Shown: piece after piece, positions 1,926-15,005 of the stretch
Layout of the letters: every line of letters starts with the position of its first letter
Numbering within the stretch: the first letter of the stretch is position 1
Origin: an uncultured virus (IMG/VR IMGVR_UViG_3300025286_000007)
Taxonomy: Duplodnaviria > Heunggongvirae > Uroviricota > Caudoviricetes
Virus record (IMG/VR): IMGVR_UViG_3300025286_000007
DNA: 20,216 bases
Reading direction: 5' to 3' (one strand)
Made by a program: the position numbers and the translations under genes
Notes under the pieces: generated by a model
The model's database searches: none
Seen by the model: only the letters and a program-made list of their open reading frames with translations
What the model was told of the DNA's origin: nothing

Positions 1926-2223
1926 GCCAATACCCTACAGAATAATGCAATACACTGCATAGCTCTACACTGTAGAGCATCACAGAGCAGGACAGACTCC
2001 CTGAGTTTGTTCCTGTTTTTTGTGACATGATAATTTTTTATCATGTCGAATAGGAACAAGGTCGGAAGCGGAAAGGATAGGAAAGGGAAAGGAAAAACAA
2101 TCCCTATACTATAGGGCAGGGCAGATACCTGCAGTACTCTACAGAGTGTAGGGCAGAGTAGAGTTATCATGTCCCCATTTTTTTTATAGATTCTCTATAG
2201 AGTAGCTAGTGTTAGGCACAAAT

Positions 2224-2252
2224 TTGACAACAGTTGCGAACGGTGATAGTCT
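2224..2252 (+). promoter_or_regulatory. Sigma70-type promoter P4
   Basis: TTGACA 2224-2229, 17-bp spacer, TGn-TAGTCT 2247-2252, upstream of ORF 2315. Confidence 0.7.
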
Positions 2253-2314
2253 GGTCATGTGCCAAGCGAGACGGCTCCGCTGAAACCGTACACTATAGTA
2301 CAGGATGGTGACTA

Positions 2315-2545
2315 ATGGCTAATCAGCCCAAAAACCCAGCCGATAAGTATACAGTTGAGAATGGCGAAATTGTAATGCGCTTTCCGATACTGCCTACGCT
2401 CAGTAAGAAAGGGATTTCAATGCTTCTAGCTACTACTAGGGGTGCCGAAACCTTCACCTATGAAGGCATGGAGATAAAGGCCAATGTCAATCTCTATGTT
2501 CCTATTGAGGAATGGGAAGCTAAGGCCAAGAAATCCAAGAAATAG
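2315..2545 (+). CDS. Small beta-rich protein with SKKG-S-LLATT-G motif; paralog of 3379-3579
   Basis: ORF track; aligns by eye with the 3379-3579 product. Confidence 0.85.
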   Translation: MANQPKNPADKYTVENGEIVMRFPILPTLSKKGISMLLATTRGAETFTYEGMEIKANVNLYVPIEEWEAKAKKSKK

Positions 2546-2559
2546 GCTAGCTAGGAATC

Positions 2560-2591
2560 GGGCAGGTTTGGCACACCTGCCCTATTTCTTT
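2560..2591 (+). terminator. Probable intrinsic terminator
   Basis: Stem GGGCAGGT/ACCTGCCC with a 7-nt loop, followed by TATTTCTTT, 15 nt after the stop at 2545. Confidence 0.65.
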
Positions 2592-2752
2592 GCCCAAAAT
2601 TAGACATGATAGCTTTTATATAGAGAGGGATATATTCTTATCATGTCTACCCTCCTCTCCCATAGAGGAAGGGAACAGGAAAGGAAGGAAGGGAATCAGG
2701 AATGGAAAGAGACTTGATAAGTTTATCAACTCACTTTTGTCAAGTGAGCGGT

Positions 2753-2779
2753 GGGCAGTTTTTCGACCTGCCCAGGTCG
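2753..2779 (-). ncRNA. Structured RNA element: H-type pseudoknot, copy 1
   Basis: Minus strand reads CGAC-CU-GGGCAG-GUCG-AAAAA-CUGCCC; lies 6 nt after the stop of 2786-3055. Confidence 0.75.
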
Positions 2780-2785
2780 CCAAAG

Positions 2786-3055
2786 CTACACCTCACTTTC
2801 TACAATTTCGACTGTAAGTAAGTCGCCATGATCGGATTCACAATACCAACCCAATTCCTCACGCATAGCGGTAATAGAGAAACACGACAAACCCGAAATA
2901 AATTCTACCGCTTTGCGTACCGCATCCCAGTGACTATAGCGAATCCTATCAGAAGGGTATACAACGCTAGGAGAAGAATCATTCCACGTAATTTCCCGTA
3001 CTTCGACTCGATACTTTCGATCACTAGGCACATAGGTAGGGGCGTAGGTAATCAT
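2786..3055 (-). CDS. Hypothetical protein (89 aa)
   Basis: ORF track; RBS GGGAGG (3061-3066, minus); own promoter at 3100-3127. Confidence 0.8.
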   Translation of the reverse strand: MITYAPTYVPSDRKYRVEVREITWNDSSPSVVYPSDRIRYSHWDAVRKAVEFISGLSCFSITAMREELGWYCESDHGDLLTVEIVESEV

Positions 3056-3099
3056 TCGAGCCTCCCGATAGAGTGTTCAAGGTTTCCCTTGACTTCTCT

Positions 3100-3127
3100 A
3101 TAGTACCACATTTAGAGGTATTGTCAA
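3100..3127 (-). promoter_or_regulatory. Sigma70-type promoter P5
   Basis: Minus strand: TTGACA (3127-3122), 16-bp spacer, TGn-TACTAT (3105-3100). Confidence 0.75.
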
Positions 3128-3259
3128 ATAAAACAGGACTTGATAATTACCATGTCTAAAAAAGAGGGGACACAAGGAAGGAACAGGGAATAGGGAATGG
3201 AAGGAACGGAAAGACTCTTATCAAATCTATTTATCAAATCGAAAAATGGCAAAACTAAA

Positions 3260-3286
3260 GAGCAGTTTAATGACTTGCTCAGGTCA
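3260..3286 (-). ncRNA. Structured RNA element: H-type pseudoknot, copy 2
   Basis: Minus strand reads UGAC-CU-GAGCAA-GUCA-UUAAA-CUGCUC; about 90 nt downstream of the stop of 3379-3579. Confidence 0.75.
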
Positions 3287-3378
3287 TAGAATCGGGGGCG
3301 GCATATGCTAACTCCTATGCTTTGAATTTGGTGGGGTAGCTTTCGTAGTGTACCAAGCTACTTGCTACCCCCTGTGCC

Positions 3379-3579
3379 TTAACCTTTCGCTACATGAGGA
3401 ACGTAGACGTTCAAATTGACTTGAACGTTCTTGTCTTCATGAATGAATGACTCGGTTCCCGAGGTTGTGGCAAGCAACACAGACTTGCCGGATTTCGCGG
3501 GCCGAGGCGCAATCTTCTTGACGATAACCACAAAGCCATCTTCAATGTACATCGCTTCTCTGAGTGCCTTGTTAACCAT
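3379..3579 (-). CDS. Small beta-rich protein with KSGKS-LLATT-G motif; paralog of 2315-2545
   Basis: ORF track; RBS AAGGAG (3590-3595, minus); own promoter. Confidence 0.85.
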   Translation of the reverse strand: MVNKALREAMYIEDGFVVIVKKIAPRPAKSGKSVLLATTSGTESFIHEDKNVQVNLNVYVPHVAKG

Positions 3580-3639
3580 AATTCACACGCTCCTTATTCT
3601 AAATATTTTGTCGGGAGTGGTACTTCTCCCAACATCAAT

Positions 3640-3668
3640 ATAGTAGCACAGTCGTACCCCCTTGTCAA
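3640..3668 (-). promoter_or_regulatory. Sigma70-type promoter P6
   Basis: Minus strand: TTGACA (3668-3663), 17-bp spacer, TGn-TACTAT (3645-3640). Confidence 0.8.
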
Positions 3669-3842
3669 ATTTATGACTATAGTGAAAACCAAAAAAACGG
3701 GAGTTGATAATTATTATGTCTAATATATAGAGAGAGCAGGAAAGGGAAAGGAAGGTGGAAGGAAAGGAACGTGGAAGGAAAGGAACGTGGAAGGAACGAG
3801 AGTTGATAATTCTATCAAGTCTAGTTTTTTGTCAATCCCTTT

Positions 3843-3869
3843 GAGCAGTTTATACACTTGCTCAGGTGT
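3843..3869 (-). ncRNA. Structured RNA element: H-type pseudoknot, copy 3
   Basis: Minus strand reads ACAC-CU-GAGCAA-GUGU-AUAAA-CUGCUC; lies 7 nt after the stop at 3877. Confidence 0.75.
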
Positions 3870-3876
3870 TTTATGA

Positions 3877-4221
3877 CTAGCCTAGGTTTAACCTCGCTTG
3901 GTAAATGGTTTCGTACTGGGTGGCATCAGGCCAAATTTTGCTGTTAGCGGATGAGAAGTTTACCACATAATCCCAACACTTGGCACAAATTCCATTTCCT
4001 AATCCCTCAGCATATGAGCCACAAGTTTCGCAATTTCCGTTTGAATCCGAGATTTTATCTTTGGGTAGATTCCTGACTGATGCTTCAAATTCCGCCCTAA
4101 TGATATCGTCCTGAGTCTTATCGACATTTCGATCTACTTGGTCAGCGCTATCGTTAGCTATTGCACTTTTTCCTTCGACGACGTTAGCTCGCAGGAGGGT
4201 GATGTTATCCCAAAATCCCAT
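3877..4221 (-). CDS. Zinc-finger-containing hypothetical protein (114 aa from MGFWDNI)
   Basis: CETC...CAKC motif. Start moved from 4272 to 4221 because 4272 lies almost at the predicted TSS and MGFWDNI matches the MSSFWDNI start of ORF 1245. Confidence 0.75.
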   Translation of the reverse strand: MGFWDNITLLRANVVEGKSAIANDSADQVDRNVDKTQDDIIRAEFEASVRNLPKDKISDSNGNCETCGSYAEGLGNGICAKCWDYVVNFSSANSKIWPDATQYETIYQARLNLG

Positions 4222-4285
4222 TTTGTTCACTCTCAGCCTTTCGGCTGTCCTTTGTAATGTTAGAGGTGTCATCCCCTACACAAGG

Positions 4286-4313
4286 AGTATAGCAGAATGA
4301 CATGTAGTGTCAA
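4286..4313 (-). promoter_or_regulatory. Sigma70-type promoter P7
   Basis: Minus strand: TTGACA (4313-4308), 16-bp spacer, TGn-TATACT (4291-4286). Confidence 0.75.
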
Positions 4314-4414
4314 TAGCCTCTATGAAGATTTTGGGAGTTGATAATTATTATGTCTAAATATATATAAATAAGTATATAAAATATTCTAACCGTTTCTGAC
4401 TAGGTTATTTCATT

Positions 4415-4489
4415 TCAGTCTGTTAGTATACTCCAAACTATTAATCCTATTGATCCAATAAAGATTCCTGTTAATAATATTTCTACCAT
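4415..4489 (-). CDS. 24-aa single-pass membrane peptide (MVEILLTGIFIGSIGLIVWSILTD)
   Basis: Hand-translated; GGAG 9 nt upstream; almost entirely hydrophobic; lies at the end of the minus-strand operon. Confidence 0.5.
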   Translation of the reverse strand: MVEILLTGIFIGSIGLIVWSILTD

Positions 4490-4560
4490 TTTATTTCACT
4501 CCAGCCCAGCTTTTAATACTATTTTTGTTATTTCTTTTACTAAATTTTCAGCTTTCATTA

Positions 4561-4749: not shown

Positions 4750-5029
4750 TTTCAATGCTCCACATACTATCAAGTTTTTCTGTATCAATTAGAATTAGCC
4801 TCTGTTTTAAATATCCTAAATGTTTACAATTACATTGCGCTACTTGTCCACATACACATGTATAACAATCTTCTGTTTCTTGTACCTCTATAATTTTGTT
4901 ATATTTTGTTTGTAAGATATTTAGTTGTTTTAATAGTTTAGTGTTTTCATTTTGTAAACTTTCTATTTCATTAATTAAATAATATTTATATTGTTTTTTA
5001 TCTGCCACATGGGTTTTCTGTTTCTTCAT
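4739..5029 (-). CDS. Hypothetical protein with a short coiled coil and a Cys cluster
   Basis: ORF track; overlaps its neighbours in operon fashion; CxxCxC...CxCxH. Confidence 0.65.
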   Translation of the reverse strand: MKKQKTHVADKKQYKYYLINEIESLQNENTKLLKQLNILQTKYNKIIEVQETEDCYTCVCGQVAQCNCKHLGYLKQRLILIDTEKLDSMWSIENEM

Positions 5030-5330
5030 TGTCGTTTTCCTTTCCTTCTAGTTTTAATATAGATTGTTTAAATATAGATATCAAGCATTTTGTTGGTATT
5101 ATCTGTACCATTACTTCTAGCCAGTTTACATCATCCAGATTCTTTTTTTCTGGCGTAGTTTTTCCCCAAAATATTTTAAGTAAGCCACTAAGTTTTTCAG
5201 TATATTCTTCTACTGTTTTACATGAATGTAGCATGTCATGTACTAAACGATCTATATTTTTGTTAGTTTCTATACAGTATACAGCGCTGGCTGTAGCGTC
5301 TCTATCCTGTTTAGATATATCAGTTGTCAT
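4998..5330 (-). CDS. Hypothetical protein (110 aa)
   Basis: ORF track; RBS AAGGA (5338-5342, minus). Confidence 0.75.
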   Translation of the reverse strand: MTTDISKQDRDATASAVYCIETNKNIDRLVHDMLHSCKTVEEYTEKLSGLLKIFWGKTTPEKKNLDDVNWLEVMVQIIPTKCLISIFKQSILKLEGKENDNEETENPCGR

Positions 5331-5352
5331 CAGGGTATCCTTTCTTTATACC

Positions 5353-6768
5353 GTTTCAAATCAACCTCTCTAACTGAGCCTGTCTGATCACACAGATTAG
5401 TATATTTCTAGATGTAGTTTACTTATTTAGCTGCTGCATCCTACATCTTTGTGTTGCTCTTACTTAAACCTTCTAATAGATTTTACTAACCTGTTTAACT
5501 CTTCTGATTCCTGCAACTTCTGTAGCCTGTACTAAGCTTTTACGAATCTTTATAACTAGTTCTATAGTCTAGATTTTACGTAGTTTACTTATTACTTTAA
5601 CTTATATATATAGATAGTTAATCTCATTTCGTTTCAAGTCCAGCCCTCTCAGCACCACCACCATGCTTACTGGACATGGTGTGTCTAGTCTCTTAGCTAC
5701 TTGTCTAGCTGCTTAGTCTACACTCTCCACACCTCTTACTTATATACTCTAGTAAAATTCTGTCTATGTACATACTTATTCTCTGATCCCTGTGGTCTCT
5801 ACATCTTATCCTAGTCTGTCTCTAGTCTCTATAACTAGTTATCTAGCCTAGACTTTACTTAACTTATCTATTACCTTACCTTATATACATAGCTAGTTAA
5901 TCCTATTTCATTTCAAGTCAGTCACTCTAGCTGACATCTCTTGTACACTCTGGTCACCATGCTCCTAGACTCTCTAGCTATCTAGCTTGCTAGGCTCTAG
6001 ACTCTCTACCTCCTGTGCCTAGACTCTCTAGTGACCTCTGGCTATCTGTCTAGCTCCCACCGATCTCTGTAGTCTCTGTAGCTCGTCCTAGCCACTCTCT
6101 AGGCTATCTGTAGATAGCTCTCAGGCTCCTGTACCCTCCTGTAGCTAGTCCTACGCTGGGCTGTTCTTATCTTTACTAACTCTATTTCGGTTTCAAGTTG
6201 ACGCTCTAGACGACCATGCCTGACCACCTGACAGCTAGCCTCTGTGTCCACCTAGCTAGACAGTCAGCCTCAGTCTCTACACACTGAGACCCTGATGTCT
6301 GTGACCGTGACCCTGCTGTAGATGTACACGCCTACACCCACATCTCCTGTGTCCACTAGTCACTAGCCTACTTACTTGTAGCTGACATAGCTTAATCTCT
6401 ACAGTGTACACCAAGCTCCTAGCTCTTGTCAACTTGGCCTAGACTCGTCTTATCTTAGCTATTTCGGTTTCACTGCCCTGCCTCTCAGCAGCCTCACAGA
6501 CACCTCTACACACCACACTCTGCACTCAAGGCTCTACACTCTGTCTACATGCTCTACACACTGCCTACACACCCTACACAGCACACCCACAGCAGCCTAG
6601 CTACCTGCCTGACACCTCTACCTGACAGGCTAGTCAGCCCTCACTCTGCCAGCAGCACCTCTAGGCTAGGCTCTCTAGCTGGCCCTGACCCTCCACAGGC
6701 TCCCTGTCCACAACACCCTCTTGAAGGGGGTGGGGGTGAACTGGTTTCAAGTCAACCTCTAAAACTGA
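5353..6768. repeat. Degenerate ~278-bp-period array with a GTTTCAAGTC core
   Basis: Cores begin at 5353, 5631, 5910, 6190, 6467 and 6744 (spacings 278, 279, 280, 277, 277). Confidence 0.85.
6403..6432 (-). promoter_or_regulatory. Candidate sigma70 promoter inside the array
   Basis: Minus strand: TTGACA (6432-6427), 18-bp spacer, TACACT (6408-6403). Confidence 0.5.
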
Positions 6769-6805
6769 CTCAAGCCTGTAAATATACCCCCGTGGGTCTA
6801 GACGA

Positions 6806-6942
6806 TTAAATAACTTTAACTAGTTATAGTTTCAACTAATAATTATTTCTTTCTAACTAATAACTAACTAATTAATAATAAGTAAGTAACTAATTAAATA
6901 ACTAAAAAACTTATTCGTTTAATAATATATTATAATCTATTA
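6806..6942. other. Very AT-rich tract with TAACTAA repeats (candidate DNA-unwinding element)
   Basis: Few G/C bases; TAACTAA recurs around 6833-6905; adjacent to the array. Confidence 0.5.
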
Positions 6943-7115
6943 CGATGAAGGGGGGTGTCTTAAAAAGTTAGCTTGTTCCTTTATATAGACCCCCCGGTTA
7001 TACTATTATGTTTCCTTGTAGGTAACCATTAATCTAGGGTACTATTTACCAAGACTATTTTTTCAAAACGTCCTAGCTAAATTTTTGTAATTATAAAATA
7101 AAACCCTATTTGAAG

Positions 7116-7123
7116 AGTATAAT
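7116..7123 (+). promoter_or_regulatory. AGTATAAT -10-like promoter element
   Basis: The same octamer occurs at 7735-7742 and 15028-15035, each 30-52 nt before a gene start. Confidence 0.55.
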
Positions 7124-7152
7124 GTAGTAAGAATCTTGCGAAAGGATAGATT

Positions 7153-7431
7153 ATGATGAGTAAAGGTAGTAGGATCAGAGAAGTTTTGACAGACGAGGAA
7201 AATGGTGGTATTCTGTATGAGGATATGGATGATGCTTTAATCGGCATTTATAGAACTCAATATGGGGCATCATTAGGAATATACTCGTATGTTAAGTATA
7301 CAGAACTTCTTATTAATAATAAGGGGCTGTCAGAAGAGGACGCAGTAGAATACGCTGATTCTCATGTATATAAAGGTATAGTTTCTTATGATTCCTATCA
7401 TCCATTAATTATTGATGACACTGGCGTTTAA
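7153..7431 (+). CDS. Conserved-looking acidic phage hypothetical protein (DDALIG...SEEDAVEY)
   Basis: ORF track; RBS AAGGA; motif resembles a common phage hypothetical family (recollection, not searched). Confidence 0.85.
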   Translation: MMSKGSRIREVLTDEENGGILYEDMDDALIGIYRTQYGASLGIYSYVKYTELLINNKGLSEEDAVEYADSHVYKGIVSYDSYHPLIIDDTGV

Positions 7432-7742: not shown

Positions 7743-7793
7743 ATAGTAGTGCTGTTGATTCAGCATATAGCTGATCTATGTTTAGGAGATACT

Positions 7794-10700
7794 ATGTCGC
7801 GACTTACAGACATTTATAATAGTCTTATGGATGATCCAGATATCGTTCCACCAGCTAAAATATCCAAAGATGAATATGTTTTGAATATGGCTCGACAACG
7901 TATTCAACAGAGTGAAAATAATGCTGAAGCGTTGGAGATGGGTTTTGTTAAGACTAATGGTCATTTTTCTAATGGATATTCCAACAATGGTGGCTCTCAG
8001 TCTGCTGTAAATAAGCTTGCCGCTTTTGTGAACCTGCCGGAGGCTTCGCCTGATACAGATATATTATTGGAAAAGGCGAAAGAACCACAACATTTCCACG
8101 AGGATGCTTTACAATATCTTCTAGACAGGAACTATTCAAACGCAGTTATAGAGCAACTTCGTAAAGATCATCCACCTATGGCGACTTCTTCGGGTAAACC
8201 TATTCTGGAAATAAGTCTTAAGGATATAGCAAGTATTATCCCAGATAGGATGGCAGTAAGTGACGATGCACGAATAGCTGGAGAGGAGCGACCTACGGCT
8301 AAATCGCATCCAGCCATGTTTAAACCTGCGGCTAAGCCTAAGACCGCCACATCTGATGTTCCAGAGAAAGTTACATCTAAGAAAAAAGATGGGGTAAAAA
8401 GTATATTCCCAATAAAATGGGAAAGTGGTAATAAGTATAATACTGATTTGAAGCTTGGAAGCCTTGTACGAAATGAACAAGGTGACTTATTTAAAGTAAA
8501 TCGTCTCAATGGTTATAATGTAGAACTTGATGGCATTAATGAGAAGGGCCAATCCAGAGGATCAACGAGTAATATTACTATTAATGTAGACCCTTCTGTC
8601 CGTAAACAAGGAGACCCTTTCTATTATCCTCATAAAATAGGAAATATAGATAATCATAATGATTTATTAGATGTAGGAACTCAAGCTAGGGTGGATACGG
8701 ACACATCCCCTACAGAGCAGGAGTCTACTCAACCTGAAGTTACGCCTGATAAAGGGGAAGACACCGATGAAGGAATTGAGCCTCTAGATGCAGATAGTAC
8801 ACTTCCTCAAATCCAGACTTTGGAGGAGATTGCGGAACTTAATACCACTCAATTAGAGGCTGCACTGGTAGCTAAAGGGTTTGATAGAAATCAAATCGGT
8901 AAAATAGCAAAGATGAAAGGGCTTCAAACGGATGGCTTGCTTGACCAAGAGAAATATAGGCAATATTTACAGGAAACACTTGCAAAAACTGTTAAAACAG
9001 CACAAGAAGAAGCAGAAGAAGCAGTGGTAACTGAGGCTAAACCTGAATCTGCTCTTGATGCTAGATTAAAAGAGATTGACCCTGCCTATAATAAAGCAAC
9101 GGTTATAACCAGATTGAGCAGCTTGTATGGAGGTGGGTATAGACTTTCCGAGTTAGAGGGTATGTCTGATGATGAGTTAGTAGCTAGGGTTAAGATAAGT
9201 TCGGAAGATATTTCTCATAGCAGAAATGACATTGAACAGGTGGTCAGCCGACAAAAAAGTGGAGACAGGCGGCTTAGGGCTGCTGGATATACTCAAGAAA
9301 ATATAACTGAAATGTCAGATAATATGAAAAATACGCTGCTTAATCACCTTGATGAAAACCCAACTTGGAAAAGAGGCGACATTGATGCTGCCATTAAGAG
9401 AGAGGGGGTCGCTGCGGCTGCAGAGGGGGCCGCTGCGGATGCAGAGAGGGCCGCTGCGGCTGAATCATCTGCAGGGGAAAAGACACCAGCTACTATTGAA
9501 GGCCCACTTGAGCCAGAAGACCCAAAGAAACAACTGTCAGACAAGGCTAAAGAAGAGCTTTCTAGAACGATTTCTGATACTGGTTTAGAAGCTCTTTTAG
9601 GTAAACTTGGAAAAGGTAGGGAGCAACTTTTTGACCCTATGGGAACGCCCATGCTTGAAAGTAAGAAGAATGACAAAGGTAAGGTCATAAAAGGTACGTG
9701 GGTAGATAGGGATGGAAATGAATATAGTAAGATAAAAGGCAAATACATTGACTCGCAAGGAAACGAACCGAAAGATGGTGAATATGTAGGCACTGTGGCG
9801 CAAGCTCAGGACTATATAACGCATCTTAAAGAGTCAGGTCATCCACATCATGAACATTTTAGTGAAATAAGAAATATGGATATCCTTGATAAGGATGGTA
9901 AACCTACTGGAGAAAAAGTCGGGCAACATATAGACATAATGGAACCAGAGCTTGGTACTGTAATAAATAAACCACTTGTTGTAGAAACTCCTGTTGTAGA
10001 AACTCCTGTGGTTGAAACTCCTGAAGCAGATGCTGATGCAAAAAAGGCAGAAGAGTCAGGCGACACACCAGAACCAGAAGTGTTAGAAGCAGCAGAAAAT
10101 ATCTCTCCAGAGGTAGAGGCCATAGCTAAAACGCTGTTGAAAAGTGGTTTTGCAAAAAGAGTGGCTTGTGAGCGTGGGCTGACAGATAAAGATGGTAATC
10201 CTACAGAAATGGGTAAAGCCTTCTTTGAACAAATTGGGCCAATGGTTAACGAAGCAGTTGATCATTTTGAAAAACATAAAGACACGATTGCTACAAAGTT
10301 TAATAGGCGTCGTGGAATGAACTTCAGAGATAAAGAGGGTAATATTGTAGGTATAGGTAACAGTGGTACGTTCCTTAATCATCTAATAGATGACATGAAT
10401 AAGGTTGCTGTAGCGAAAGGTCTTCCTACATTAGAAAAAACGCATAATGATCGTACTGGAGAAGCTCTGACAGATAATGGAGTTCCTGTAGAGCCTAATC
10501 AAGCACCCGATCTTTCTGTAGTAAATGGAGAGATGGTTAGGAATAGACTTCTTACTAGTCGAATTGGTAATGATTTTTCGAGCGACCACGGAGAGTTTAT
10601 TGCAGGACTTGGTGGTATACAACAAATTGAACAAAGCATACTTGAAAATAAAGGAATGAATCCTGATACAGCAAAGAAAATTACCGAAGAAAAACTTAAG

Positions 10701-13700
10701 GAGGTTAAGAGTGGTATAGAATCTGATGAGATTAAGGTTGCTGACGCTGGCGAAAAAATTCATAACTCAATAAATGAAACTGTAGCAACTGATTATCCAG
10801 ACATTGCTGAAACTCCTCCAGATTATGGGAAACAGCTACCTCTGTTTGAAGATATGGGTTTTGAGCCTATGTCTACACCTGAACCTACTTCTGCGGCTGA
10901 CGCTGTGGCAAAGAAAGGAGTAAAAGCTAGGCAACGAAGAGCCAATTTGGATGAGGAAATCCATATTCCTAGTAAAGTTAGTGATCAAATAAAACCGCTT
11001 TTAGCTCATCTAGGACATGACGTAGATGCAATGACATCAAGTGATGTTATGAACACATTTAGAGAAGTCTTGACAGACCCAGATAAATTTGGTGAACTGG
11101 AGATAGCTCTTAAGGAGAATGAGGAGGTTAGGAATCAGTTCGTTCAGGCACATGTTGCAATGGAGCAAGCGGAAGAAGAAGACCCTAGACTAGCTCATGC
11201 AGGACTACCGGGTTTTGGTGCCGAGGTCGAAGATTGGGGAAAGATACCAGATAGAGCAGCAGAAGCTACACAGAAAATACACGAGAGATATAGAAGGAAA
11301 AATCTTTCACCACGAAAACGTCAGGTAGAAGACTTAAAGAACGTTATGCATGGAGACTTCCATGAACATCTAGATAATCCTGATGATATGTCAGATAAAG
11401 AAATAAAGGAGATGTGGAATAAAGAGGTACGTGATCCGAAAGCTCGGACTGCTTCCTCAGCATCTGCAGGAGCAAAGCCTACAGAAAAAGATAAACCGAA
11501 TCGTACTGCGGCTTTGGAACGATTAGCTCGATTACAGAATCCTGATTTGATTGGTGATGATGACGAGGTTCTTGATCAGGATGCAATGACCAGAGCCACT
11601 ACAAAACTTGAGAGGCATTATGATCCGTCCGTTGGCTTTACTCTTAAAGATATTACAGATGCTGTAAAAGCTCAAACTAATTTAGTAGCTAACCAAGAAG
11701 CTCAACAAAAGCAAGAAAAACAGAATAGGGCTAGAGGAGTCGATCAAATAAGGGCTGTCGCTGAGTTCGAGGACAACTTTCCAGACCCAGATAAGTGGGC
11801 TAAGGAACATGATGGTGAAAAAATGAGTCCTGAAATGGCTAAAGAACATTTTAGAGAGTTAATAGACTTTCAACATCGAAAAGAAAATTTCCAGCATTTC
11901 GACCCGAAATCCGGAGACCCAGAAAATTTTAAAGCTTTAAGAGAGCGAGTACATGAGTATGCTAATCTGAATCCTTCGGCTGCTAGAGAGATTGCCGAGG
12001 AAATTAAGTCAGCACAACGTAATGGTATTGACTTAGGGTCAGATGAATTTCTAGCTCATGCTAAAGAATTAAAGGAGACTGTGGAACGTGACGAAAGAAC
12101 CGCTTTTGCTAAGGCTAATCATAAAAATGAAAAACTTGCCCATGCCTTAGAGAATGGTAATTTCTCTAGAGGTTATGATAAAGATGGTAATGATGGGCAT
12201 CGTGGGCTAGATCATAATGGTGATCCTGAACATGATACCTCAGAGATAAAGCATGAAGATGCTAAAGCTCCATTAGTTCATGCTGTGGATGAAAATGGGT
12301 ATCCTGATGATAAATTACAACAACTAGTTAATGAAATACATGACGCTGAATTAGCTATACCTAAAGGTGATAGAGAACATCATGAAGCGGAAAGTAGTTT
12401 ACGTGCGGCCCATGAGGCAGCTAAAGTGGATGAACATAAAAAAACTACAGATGCTCATACTGCAAATACTGCTGGACGAGATCGGAACTATGATGAGAAT
12501 GACGCTAAATTTGATGCTGATATAGAGAATTCACATCAACGTCAGCGTGATGCGAATTATGCACGAGTAAGTGGTGAAGGGGACAGACAGAAAGTATTAC
12601 TAGATAATCATAAGAAGCTTATAAATGAAGCTGTTGATGCTCATGAGCGTCAGTTGGCGCAACACGATGGCAAGATAAAAAAGAAACAAGATGAATATAA
12701 TGCTTATCATCAAGATATTGATAAAGCAAATAAACAGCATAAAAAAAATGTTGGTGACGCTTCTGCAGATAGGATGAATGCTATTTATGAGGCAGAACAA
12801 AAAGCTAAAAAAGCGAGGTCTACAGCTAACGATCAACTTAATTCGATACTAGCCGAGCAGATAAAACAACATAATGAAGAAGTTGAACAGCATAACCAGC
12901 AAGGTATGGACATAGTTGTTAATGCAGACGCTAGTTTCGCTGATTTGGCAAAACAGCAGACAGGTCAACTTGCAAACTTAAGGAATAAGCTATCAAAAAC
13001 TTCGGAACAATTCTATCAGAAGCAGCAAGATGATTCGAATGTTGCTGCAGCTAGGGGGGCTAGTCCGGAGTATTTAGGTAATTTGACGCAGCAACATAAA
13101 CAAGAAGCTGCTGAATTTGATCGGGGTTCGCAGCAACAGGTAGCAGATTTACATCAGAGTCATCAAACTGAAATAGAAAAACATGCTAACAATCTTGGTC
13201 AAGAAGGTAAGGAGTGGACTCAAGCAGGAACTGATCTTCTTCTTAACCAGGCTGAAGAGAGACAGAAGTTAACAGATGATGGTCATGCTAGGATGGAACG
13301 TATAGATGCTGCCGTAGCACATACGGACGCTACAGCACGAAAAACTGAGAACGATGCTATTAATCAGTCTAGAGACATTCGTAACAAATCATTGCAAGAA
13401 GTTGCGGATGCGGCTGGACTTGAAGCTTTTATAGAAGACGATGGTGACGCTACAAGATTCGCAGATCAAATGAGACAAGAGCAAAGTTCTCATGAGACAG
13501 ACTCAGCGATTATTCGTGAGCAAATTCAAACCGACCATGGAGATTATGTTGAAAGTAAACGGCGTGGTTTTAAGAGTGAACAAGGAAAAATGTTTGCCCA
13601 AGCGACTAGGGCTGGAGATGCATCCAATGAAGAGTTTGAAAAGGAACGTGAAGGTCATATAGTACGTAGACAACGAGAAAATCTGTATGTTACTAATGAC

Positions 13701-15005
13701 TTTGAAATACTCAGAGATAAGATAGATAATTTACATGGTAAGCTTAAACGAGACGCTAAAAAGAATTTTAATGTTCAGAAGAAACGACTTGGTACAGATA
13801 AAAAAGTCTCAGATCAAGCCGCTTTAGAGAGAAAAGAGAGGGCACATGCCACATTAGACGAATATTTAAAGGATGATCCAGAGAAATTAGCGGCTATTAA
13901 AAAGAATCCTCAGCTAGGAGAGCATCAGGATAAAGTTCAGCAAGCCCATGAAGAGGCTGGCTCAGGGCCAACTGGCGAAAAAGATGCTAAGGGTGAAGAT
14001 AAGAAGCCAGAAAAAACTCGTATGGTTAAAGACCCCAAAACAGAGGAGATGAAAAAGCAGTATTGGATTCCAGGTAGAGGTAAAGGTTGGGTAGACGAAG
14101 ATACCTATAGGGCCTCTCATGGTCAGAATGCTGCTGCAGCTAAAAATAATAAACTGGTTATTTATCCTCAAGGCCACTTTGATGCAGGTCATGGACAAGA
14201 AGGTGATGAGGATTATAGGCCAATGTCACCACCAATGGCTGGACATGGTGCAAACATGTTCTCCATCCACACTCCTGATCATCCTGACGCAGGATTACAT
14301 GATGATGAATTAGATCATGAAGGTGTTATGGGCAGCCATTTAGGTAATCAGCCCGGTATAACTGATCACGAAAACTTTACAGCAAATGGCGCACCATTTG
14401 AGGTAGACCTTGATTCTGTGGGTCTACGGGGTATGGCTGAAGCTGCTGGTAAAGGTAAGGGACAGGCCCGTGATCCTGAAAGTAAAAGAGAAAAAATTGG
14501 AAGACAGTTTGGTGGAGTAGAAGCCCAACGAAGGGCAGGAACTGGAGAATTTGCTGCATATGGACAAGCAGCCAAAGCAGTTGGAAGAAAATTTACGGGT
14601 GCTTTGGATTATGTAAATAGTTTACGTGGAGAACAAGGACAACGACAATCTGCTGTTCAACAGTTTGCATCCCGAATGGGAAGTGGTGATGGAGGTGACA
14701 TAGGACAACATGTCGCAAATGCACTAAGAGGAGCTAGACAAAGAGGTAGAAAGGCACTGGGTGGAGTTTATTCCGGGGGATTCGCGCCTAAAAATGAACG
14801 CCAGGCAAAAGCAAAAGTAGAGCTATGGCGTAGACTACCAGGCTTTCTTAGAGAGATATATAGCCTAAGAAATCAAGAACATGCAAGACAACTTGATCAT
14901 ATAAGGGATATAGAAGATAGAAACGAACGAAAAAGTTCTATGGATCAATGGAGGGAATGGAGCAAAGGAATACATAGCGAGATAGAATCTAGACCAAAAA
15001 TGTAG
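7794..15005 (+). CDS. Giant (2403 aa) charged, largely helical or low-complexity protein; putative internal virion protein
   Basis: 7.2-kb ORF. Start moved to ATG 7794 (RBS AGGAG 7784-7788). E/K/D/A/Q/H-rich, one Cys seen, long coiled-coil-like stretch in the C-terminal half; no enzyme motif recognised. Confidence 0.9.
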   Translation: MSRLTDIYNSLMDDPDIVPPAKISKDEYVLNMARQRIQQSENNAEALEMGFVKTNGHFSNGYSNNGGSQSAVNKLAAFVNLPEASPDTDILLEKAKEPQHFHEDALQYLLDRNYSNAVIEQLRKDHPPMATSSGKPILEISLKDIASIIPDRMAVSDDARIAGEERPTAKSHPAMFKPAAKPKTATSDVPEKVTSKKKDGVKSIFPIKWESGNKYNTDLKLGSLVRNEQGDLFKVNRLNGYNVELDGINEKGQSRGSTSNITINVDPSVRKQGDPFYYPHKIGNIDNHNDLLDVGTQARVDTDTSPTEQESTQPEVTPDKGEDTDEGIEPLDADSTLPQIQTLEEIAELNTTQLEAALVAKGFDRNQIGKIAKMKGLQTDGLLDQEKYRQYLQETLAKTVKTAQEEAEEAVVTEAKPESALDARLKEIDPAYNKATVITRLSSLYGGGYRLSELEGMSDDELVARVKISSEDISHSRNDIEQVVSRQKSGDRRLRAAGYTQENITEMSDNMKNTLLNHLDENPTWKRGDIDAAIKREGVAAAAEGAAADAERAAAAESSAGEKTPATIEGPLEPEDPKKQLSDKAKEELSRTISDTGLEALLGKLGKGREQLFDPMGTPMLESKKNDKGKVIKGTWVDRDGNEYSKIKGKYIDSQGNEPKDGEYVGTVAQAQDYITHLKESGHPHHEHFSEIRNMDILDKDGKPTGEKVGQHIDIMEPELGTVINKPLVVETPVVETPVVETPEADADAKKAEESGDTPEPEVLEAAENISPEVEAIAKTLLKSGFAKRVACERGLTDKDGNPTEMGKAFFEQIGPMVNEAVDHFEKHKDTIATKFNRRRGMNFRDKEGNIVGIGNSGTFLNHLIDDMNKVAVAKGLPTLEKTHNDRTGEALTDNGVPVEPNQAPDLSVVNGEMVRNRLLTSRIGNDFSSDHGEFIAGLGGIQQIEQSILENKGMNPDTAKKITEEKLKEVKSGIESDEIKVADAGEKIHNSINETVATDYPDIAETPPDYGKQLPLFEDMGFEPMSTPEPTSAADAVAKKGVKARQRRANLDEEIHIPSKVSDQIKPLLAHLGHDVDAMTSSDVMNTFREVLTDPDKFGELEIALKENEEVRNQFVQAHVAMEQAEEEDPRLAHAGLPGFGAEVEDWGKIPDRAAEATQKIHERYRRKNLSPRKRQVEDLKNVMHGDFHEHLDNPDDMSDKEIKEMWNKEVRDPKARTASSASAGAKPTEKDKPNRTAALERLARLQNPDLIGDDDEVLDQDAMTRATTKLERHYDPSVGFTLKDITDAVKAQTNLVANQEAQQKQEKQNRARGVDQIRAVAEFEDNFPDPDKWAKEHDGEKMSPEMAKEHFRELIDFQHRKENFQHFDPKSGDPENFKALRERVHEYANLNPSAAREIAEEIKSAQRNGIDLGSDEFLAHAKELKETVERDERTAFAKANHKNEKLAHALENGNFSRGYDKDGNDGHRGLDHNGDPEHDTSEIKHEDAKAPLVHAVDENGYPDDKLQQLVNEIHDAELAIPKGDREHHEAESSLRAAHEAAKVDEHKKTTDAHTANTAGRDRNYDENDAKFDADIENSHQRQRDANYARVSGEGDRQKVLLDNHKKLINEAVDAHERQLAQHDGKIKKKQDEYNAYHQDIDKANKQHKKNVGDASADRMNAIYEAEQKAKKARSTANDQLNSILAEQIKQHNEEVEQHNQQGMDIVVNADASFADLAKQQTGQLANLRNKLSKTSEQFYQKQQDDSNVAAARGASPEYLGNLTQQHKQEAAEFDRGSQQQVADLHQSHQTEIEKHANNLGQEGKEWTQAGTDLLLNQAEERQKLTDDGHARMERIDAAVAHTDATARKTENDAINQSRDIRNKSLQEVADAAGLEAFIEDDGDATRFADQMRQEQSSHETDSAIIREQIQTDHGDYVESKRRGFKSEQGKMFAQATRAGDASNEEFEKEREGHIVRRQRENLYVTNDFEILRDKIDNLHGKLKRDAKKNFNVQKKRLGTDKKVSDQAALERKERAHATLDEYLKDDPEKLAAIKKNPQLGEHQDKVQQAHEEAGSGPTGEKDAKGEDKKPEKTRMVKDPKTEEMKKQYWIPGRGKGWVDEDTYRASHGQNAAAAKNNKLVIYPQGHFDAGHGQEGDEDYRPMSPPMAGHGANMFSIHTPDHPDAGLHDDELDHEGVMGSHLGNQPGITDHENFTANGAPFEVDLDSVGLRGMAEAAGKGKGQARDPESKREKIGRQFGGVEAQRRAGTGEFAAYGQAAKAVGRKFTGALDYVNSLRGEQGQRQSAVQQFASRMGSGDGGDIGQHVANALRGARQRGRKALGGVYSGGFAPKNERQAKAKVELWRRLPGFLREIYSLRNQEHARQLDHIRDIEDRNERKSSMDQWREWSKGIHSEIESRPKM
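9401..9463 (+). repeat. 21-bp in-frame tandem repeat x3 (EGxAAxA)
   Basis: AGAGGGGGYCGCTGCGGMTGC-like units at 9401, 9422 and 9443. Confidence 0.9.
9978..10022 (+). repeat. 15-bp in-frame tandem repeat x3 (VVETP)
   Basis: GTTGTAGAAACTCCT twice, then GTGGTTGAAACTCCT. Confidence 0.9.

Follow-up and report, generated by a model that had tools for sequence, protein, structure and literature searches.

The DNA analysed here (20,216 nucleotides from an uncultured virus of the Caudoviricetes, hereafter the window) is contained in a 40,478-bp phage contig that bears an array of short, regularly spaced sites. On this contig and two overlapping assemblies of 51 kb there are genes for an SU10-type capsid, an HK97-type protease, a sigma factor, and a tail tube and tail chaperone, as well as helicase-, primase- and polymerase-like genes that were named by eye. 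A complete relative has a genome of 85,063 bp. No close cultured phage was found, the best capsid match being 31%. The public runs with matching words are marine metagenomes; 13 public runs contain 97-100% of the sampled words and are possible sources of this DNA, and no RNA run is among those listed for the window. Look-alikes of the phage ferredoxin provide a lead only, towards Chloroflexota as the probable host of this deep-branching marine family. In L001 (positions 2885-4507) a HiPIP-like iron-sulfur domain is fused to the prohead protease, and the same phage also has genes for a ferredoxin, a trypsin-like protease and a Mom-family protein.

The array is placed between leftward small genes and a rightward structural block (Table 1). 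Fold searches gave no usable match for the 110-aa protein on its left and no clear match for the predicted model of the 92-aa protein on its right (best Z 3.2), and no member of the 92-aa family was found in GTDB genomes. Further right lies a giant 2,418-aa protein without a family match (7749-15005), whose homologues vary in length between about 1,080 and well over 2,200 aa, with in-frame-sized insertions distinguishing near-identical genomes. On the far left, early promoter modules (TTGACA ... TATACT) are repeated before small rightward genes at 324-380, 577-633 and 1193-1222. Two early gene blocks converge within 2000-4400, where repeated modules with an irregular spacing of 507-634 bp include a 25-bp element (3135, 3699, 4333), purine-rich runs and a hairpin GAGCAG...CTTGCTCAGGT (2753, 3260, 3843); similar hairpins occur in relatives, some of them around TTATCCAC. 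The likely reading of these modules is that they are PeSL-like cassette joints. Two small paralogous genes in the same region (2315-2545, + strand; 3379-3579, - strand) are 44% identical over 50 aa, and the pair, which faces across inverted repeats, is possibly an invertible segment.

Table 1. Features in and around the array (window coordinates).
Feature	Position	Strand	Remarks
110-aa gene, function unassigned	4998..5330	-	left neighbour of array; flanking orthologues in L068, L075, L078, L105
Site S6, core GTTTCAAATC	5353..5362	+	adjoins ribosome-binding site of the leftward 110-aa gene
Five non-coding filler units	5363..6725	.	278, 279, 280, 277, 277 bp; bear compensating indels
Site S5, core GTTTCAAGTC	5631..5640	+	
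Site S4, core ATTTCAAGTC	5910..5919	+	orthologue is the leftmost site of L068, L075, L078
Site S3, core GTTTCAAGTT	6190..6199	+	
Leftward sigma70-type promoter, TTGACA-18-TACACT	6403..6432	-	35 bp left of S2; consensus match only
Site S2, core GTTTCACTGC	6467..6476	+	identical variant at equal rank in L075; one change in L078
G-run GGGGGTGGGGG	6726..6736	+	marks S1
Site S1, core GTTTCAAGTC	6744..6753	+	G-run always immediately left
AT-rich tract setting the S1-to-S0 distance	6805..6945	.	length covaries with period across relatives
Conserved block GGGGTGTCTTAAAA ... CCCCCCGGTT ... GGTAACC ... T-run	6950..7069	+	putative genome terminus or packaging site
Site S0, GGTAACCAT	7021..7029	+	within conserved block; loosely resembles array core
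92-aa gene, phrog_13182	7153..7431	+	right neighbour of array; anchor for collecting relatives

Sites and filler in the window

A sequence-only reading of this DNA had described six cores at a nearly constant spacing, and all six were recovered at the positions it gave, with intervals of 278, 279, 280, 277 and 277 bp. Measured as the longest chain of an exact 5-mer at a constant period, the array reaches six (TTTCA, 278); in 1000 dinucleotide shuffles none reached six and a chain of five, the maximum, was seen in eight, while contig windows of 1.7 kb clear of the array (21 of 23) gave chains of three at most. Elsewhere in the 40,478-bp contig we found one further site with no more than one mismatch to GTTTCAAGTC. 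The conserved part of the site is a core of about 7-10 bp. The core at 6467 has three mismatches to GTTTCAAGTC, yet it scores 19.8 bits on a matrix partly trained on itself, and the first and last copies share 22 of 25 nt, as had been reported. GGTAACC at 7021, which we call S0, lies 277 bp right of S1, that is one period on, so that the window contains seven register points.

The array is indeed non-coding, with a high density of stops on both strands. On the + strand the filler is C-rich and G-poor, with AA, TT, AT and CG depleted and CTAG observed 37 times against 7 expected; positions 6800-6950 are 83% A+T. The earlier description of the intervening DNA as highly diverged needs to be qualified: the spacing of the cores is better kept than the sequence between them, but 5503-5649 and 5782-5928 show 73% likeness over 147 nt, and each of the two leftmost units finds its best match in the other (69% alike). 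Assembly artefact is ruled against by the 100% identity of positions 5000-7400 in two other IMG/VR assemblies. Scans of IMG/VR for the exact motif and for triple cores returned these two near-identical assemblies only, the other matches (10 of 12 loci in one scan, 44 of 46 in another) being set aside as unrelated repeats or products of chance. As a separate observation, the unrelated 30-56-kb phage contigs L028, L036, L045, L055, L059 and L063 contain many palindromic ACACCCACTG-N-TTTCAAGTGAGTG sites, irregularly spaced at 140-480 bp and resembling gene-cassette joints.

Between 5353 and 7030 no long inverted repeat was found beyond one 22-nt arm pair, the sites showed no phasing at 10.5 bp (R 0.08-0.41), and ARAGORN found nothing in the window. 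In 10 of the 12 loci scanned, one site has a promoter like that near S2 at 17-38 bp to its left, again as a consensus match. A reading of the sites as alternative-sigma promoters was rejected on the lack of a conserved second box across the 34-position site matrix, and a CRISPR-like array on the degeneracy of the cores and the homology of the fillers across genomes and partly within a genome.

The period among relatives

Alignment of the 92-aa right-hand neighbour gathered 49 metagenome loci, of which 33 were scanned (4 duplicates and 12 loci with less than 450 bp upstream were left out) and 23 were also read by eye. The scanned loci include eight arrays with at least two intervals, two with one interval, five with the last site only, and L097 with an array of a different motif. 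The remaining 17 show no array, and thus not every member of the family needs one. The last sites of L080, L088, L089, L092 and L107 are variants picked by homology, not matrix matches.

The sequence-only reading had proposed a search for the same period in relatives. What is conserved is uniformity inside each genome; the value of 278 bp is not kept, and periods from 218 to 300 bp are used, with means of 278 bp (window), 265, 258, 218.5, 300, 262.5, 297, 272 and 286 bp. The pooled standard deviation is 2.9 bp within genomes versus 24.4 bp between them (9 genomes, 28 intervals), a contrast whose p-value is inflated because the genomes are related, and inside a genome the period is held to about 1%. 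Filler units cluster by rank or position, not by genome. Orthologous units of L075 and L078, for example, are 81-92% identical, with each unit made 36-45 bp shorter by a separate deletion, so that lengths of 263, 253 and 258 bp became 218, 217 and 220 bp. Since orthologous units have shifted in length together by separate indels, the spacing is selected against a ruler that is specific to each genome. Even the leftmost unit of L080 and L088, which carries a promoter, a ribosome-binding site and a short ORF, is still one period (300 bp) long, and strain contigs depart from the length of the window by whole units, namely -278, -558 and +281 bp (80% likeness; one contig each).

The same length extends to the right of the last site, up to the conserved block, which is taken as the start of the ruler. 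The conserved block consists of a C-run, GGTT, GGTWACC and a T-run, of which the C-run/GGTT part is present in many array-less relatives as well; we infer that it is a packaging site or genome terminus. Measured from the last motif, GGTWACC stands one period away to within about 5 bp (277 bp in the window), and across genomes the last-motif-to-block distance follows the period with r=0.995 and a slope of 1.01, as against r=0.39 (p=0.29) for the control distance from block to ATG. Because the distance from S1 to the block tracks the period, the AT-rich tract, too, is a spacer of adjusted length. In L097 (277-930) a like architecture is built from a ATTACATA-like motif in seven copies 97-118 bp apart; alternate copies are 215-216 bp apart, in agreement with the block distance of L097, and the last copy lies 192 bp from the block anchor, an offset as in other loci. 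L092 is an exception, with a single unit of 179 bp against a block distance of 252 bp. In an array-less clade (L122, which belongs to G003, at 5330-5720 on the minus strand, and also L108-L112), the place of the array is taken by a rightward promoter and a gene of about 105 codons, which sit just left of two tandem G-run sites.

Taken together, it is well supported that the array is selected, length-locked and re-tuned in its period from genome to genome. The earlier suggestion of a length-constrained cis scaffold thus gains strong support from spacing that is equal in each genome despite the indels in the filler.

The tail as candidate ruler

Any ruler for this array has to combine rigidity with a length of 74-102 nm that can vary among close relatives. 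Several candidates were rejected. The giant protein is about 830 aa longer in L096 at a shared motif for a period only 3% longer, and 30 aa longer in L069 despite a shorter period. A 338-aa coiled-coil protein is an unlikely ruler, measuring 325-343 aa in five genomes, and genome length was rejected because G001 and G002 have giant-gene insertions alongside an identical array. The best candidate is the tail. A 507-aa gene outside the window follows a tail tube gene (PF18906, over cut-off) and a tail assembly chaperone gene (PHROGs) that has a slippery A-run with an open downstream frame, and the order tube, chaperone and this gene recurs in G003-G006. By its position we take the 507-aa gene to encode the tape-measure protein (TMP) of the tail. 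The candidate has no Pfam or PHROG match; its W/F spacing peaks at 31, 20, 11 and 4 and its indels favour 7, both as raw counts. Homologues at 40% identity or more are 384-562 aa long, one more match being a fragment without the N-terminus. Structure prediction of the tail tube reached a pLDDT of 29 only.

Pairing the last-site distance (bp) with the TMP length (aa) gave six pairs in total, which are related by descent and uncorrected for it. In the window the pair is 252/507, with array and TMP on the single record G001. G003 gives 194/384 from a single record that has no array, where a second candidate site at 160 bp misfits, and L068 (240/490) and L070 (265/562) had their array and TMP linked across records through an identical 92-aa protein whose longest contig equals that of the TMP in length. 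Two soft pairs, 231/466 and 196/384, are clade-level guesses. The first four pairs give a slope of 0.411+-0.039 bp/aa, or 0.14 nm/aa at 0.34 nm/bp (r=0.991, p=0.009), and with the soft ones included r is 0.994 for all six; leaving out G003, the other three of the four have a non-significant slope of 0.32+-0.09 (p=0.17). There may also be a miss of 12.5 bp for a 491-aa TMP that is sister to that of this phage, if it is of the L067 type. G004 has a TMP of 743 aa and the block, with coding DNA at the expected S1 position; G005 ends before the array region, and the layout of G006 differs. For the TP901-1 tail, a growth of 0.145 nm per TMP residue has been measured (PMC5099701), and we give this agreement weight because our slope was not fitted to that value. 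These data are suggestive of a period calibrated to tail length, a proposition that we hold at about an even balance.

A finer grain in the lengths was also sought. Thirteen homology-chosen sites show a peak at a step of 11.45 bp, or 3.9 nm, with R 0.76 (p 0.02-0.03), and the rise of a tail ring is given as 38-43 A (PMC9022992). However, p becomes 0.18-0.43 once L094 and L097 are added or close relatives collapsed, and an automatic site rule gave no quantisation signal. Quantisation by ring steps near 11.5 bp is therefore a hint only.

Proposed function and competing readings

The explanation that we prefer, at slightly less than an even chance, is that the array is a cis-acting DNA ruler beside a putative genome end of a long-tailed marine phage, with its unit length set by the tail of the virion. 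With the same reserve, the array may be described as a row of putative protein sites one neck-tail channel apart, which are re-tuned together with the tape measure gene and which either stage the entry of the genome or define tail-length redundancies. For every 0.34 nm of tail the period would contain about one base pair of B-DNA, and a further constant of about 60 bp (about 20 nm) could represent the parts of the channel beyond the tube. As DNA would lie straight in the neck-tail channel, sites one channel apart could be engaged at both ends together, and a putative protein would hold site n+1 at the portal or neck while site n arrives at the far end. The avoidance of AA/TT steps in the filler would suit such unbent DNA. 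In the version that we favour, the leading end would enter in stages, with the block first and then the units as a non-coding leader in channel-length steps, until entry has brought in the leftward promoter beside S2 and a host RNA polymerase moving capsid-ward could pull further; the pulling promoters of T7 likewise face the capsid. Alternatively, the trailing end would be concerned, with the last tail length of DNA remaining in the tube, and since this tail length is kept, each unit could serve as a tail-length terminal redundancy in a processive series. The available contigs show no pile-up of ends, their depth is uninformative, and the starts of 37 loci form no clear cluster by eye.

The proposed ruler has partial counterparts among known entry systems. 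T7 has a non-coding leading end whose tandem host promoters pull the genome in. The array resembles it in having a non-coding stretch before early genes and a host-type promoter that points away from the putative end; however, T7 is short-tailed and its repeated elements are promoters, whereas the array combines one promoter and up to seven sites at a genome-specific period. The iss region of T5 is a cis-acting, repeat-rich, non-coding DNA near a genome end that is tied to staged entry, with one stop about 9.5 kb from the end and with inverted repeats, palindromes and DnaA boxes, according to the sections of the T5 report drawn on here (10.1101/866236). Both are non-coding cis DNA by a genome end (here putative) with staged entry (here proposed), but the array consists of direct sites at one period in unstructured filler, and neither equal spacing nor tail length appears in those sections on iss. 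How DNA passage is controlled after tail opening in long-tailed phages is called an open question (PMC9022992).

The sequence-only reading had offered packaging or terminus, origin and RNA processing as functions. A packaging or terminus role for the array is plausible, and it could take a form with no link to the tail, although we regard this form, the chief competitor of the tail-set ruler, as unlikely: terminase would cut at S0 and S1 and thereby leave a direct terminal repeat of 220-300 bp, and successive genomes would use S1/S2, S2/S3 and so on. Because the site pairs shift along a processive series, no re-synthesis of the repeat would be needed. The S1-to-S0 distance equals the period and is about as long as short terminal repeats typically are, the sequence of S0 is similar to the array core, the block is present in array-less relatives, and five to six steps resemble a processive packaging series. 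Nevertheless, headful sensing on an 85-kb genome would not require a precision of +-3 bp, the period is unaffected by gain or loss of whole units, and the TMP slope is not predicted. The probable terminase genes of G003, named by eye, are also some 40 kb away from the block; a search of G001-G003 with PF03237 gave no terminase match. The phages phiEco32 and SU10 have direct terminal repeats of 193 bp, as stated in the text seen of PMC4281155. They are like our phage in the SU10-type capsid, the phage sigma factor, a similar genome size and a repeat length within the period range, and unlike it in having a single repeat unit and a short tail, with no sites at multiples of the repeat length described in that text.

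Less probable still is a replication origin or DNA-wrapping scaffold, in which an initiator or internal virion protein would bind the sites and each unit would form one loop or one turn around a core. The direct repeats do adjoin an AT-rich tract and a GC-skew switch, and the giant, probably virion, protein comes next after the array. Yet beyond the tract and the switch nothing positive speaks for an origin, and the switch tracks gene orientation as well. Loops of more than 200 bp require no exact length, 10.5-bp phasing is lacking, and the size of the giant protein does not scale with the period. The iteron and centromere arrays of lambda ori, P1 incA and F sopC have helically phased periods of tens of bases, and an iteron origin has near-identical repeats of 15-25 bp. 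The array is like these in that a short, probable protein site is directly repeated next to an AT-rich tract, but its period of 218-300 bp is unphased and differs between close relatives, and its core is only about 7-10 bp.

We consider it improbable, too, that the units are remnants of tandem early promoter-gene cassettes of the PeSL type, the motif being an operator or upstream element and the units decayed small genes. This would account for the leftward sigma70 promoter 17-38 bp from one site in those 10 of 12 loci, for the promoter, ribosome-binding site and short ORF in the leftmost units of L080 and L088, and for the gain of units by duplication. PeSL cassettes of RB49 and phi1 each carry a promoter and terminator stem-loops, with no fixed spacing given in the part of the paper that we cite (PMC2839356). 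As in those cassettes, repeated elements lie among small early genes and the modules between them are gained and lost; unlike them, most array sites have no promoter or terminator, the window having one strong promoter per six sites and two weak terminator-like matches on the strand opposite to it. In addition, the motif is upstream of the -35 box in places and beside the ribosome-binding site in others, decay cannot move all units and the AT-rich interval by an equal 40 bp, and the true cassette repeats of the window (2750-4360) are irregular at 507-634 bp. A cassette origin may explain where the units came from, but not their length.

It is very unlikely that the sites serve for processing of, or protein binding to, a long non-coding RNA that is cleaved into pieces of 278 nt. 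The leftward promoter has four units downstream of it, which would make up a long leader, but the folding z-scores (-2.0 to +1.7; six units, both strands) give no structure signal, the best Rfam match has an E of 0.1 and is located outside the array, and the register spans divergently facing promoters, with two intervals upstream of the leftward promoter and, in L080, a rightward promoter in the last interval. Neutral, decaying tandem duplication is hardly tenable: the two leftmost units of the window (69% alike) are indeed a recent duplication, but cross-genome orthologues are closer than same-genome neighbours and lengths nevertheless agree within genomes, a combination that neutral decay cannot yield.

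In the full-text literature, which included few subscription papers and no supplements, we found no site array with a genome-specific or tail-linked period. If the tail-set ruler is true, a non-coding ruler would co-evolve with a protein ruler, and the length of a tail could be read from DNA alone. A period equal to the channel length predicts that pauses or cuts would fall at multiples of the period, and that the tail genes of one relative would be incompatible with the array of another. Even without the link to the tail, the fact that as many as six unrelated spacers were re-tuned in concert to a new length specific to the genome is a clear signal of some physical ruler acting on phage DNA.
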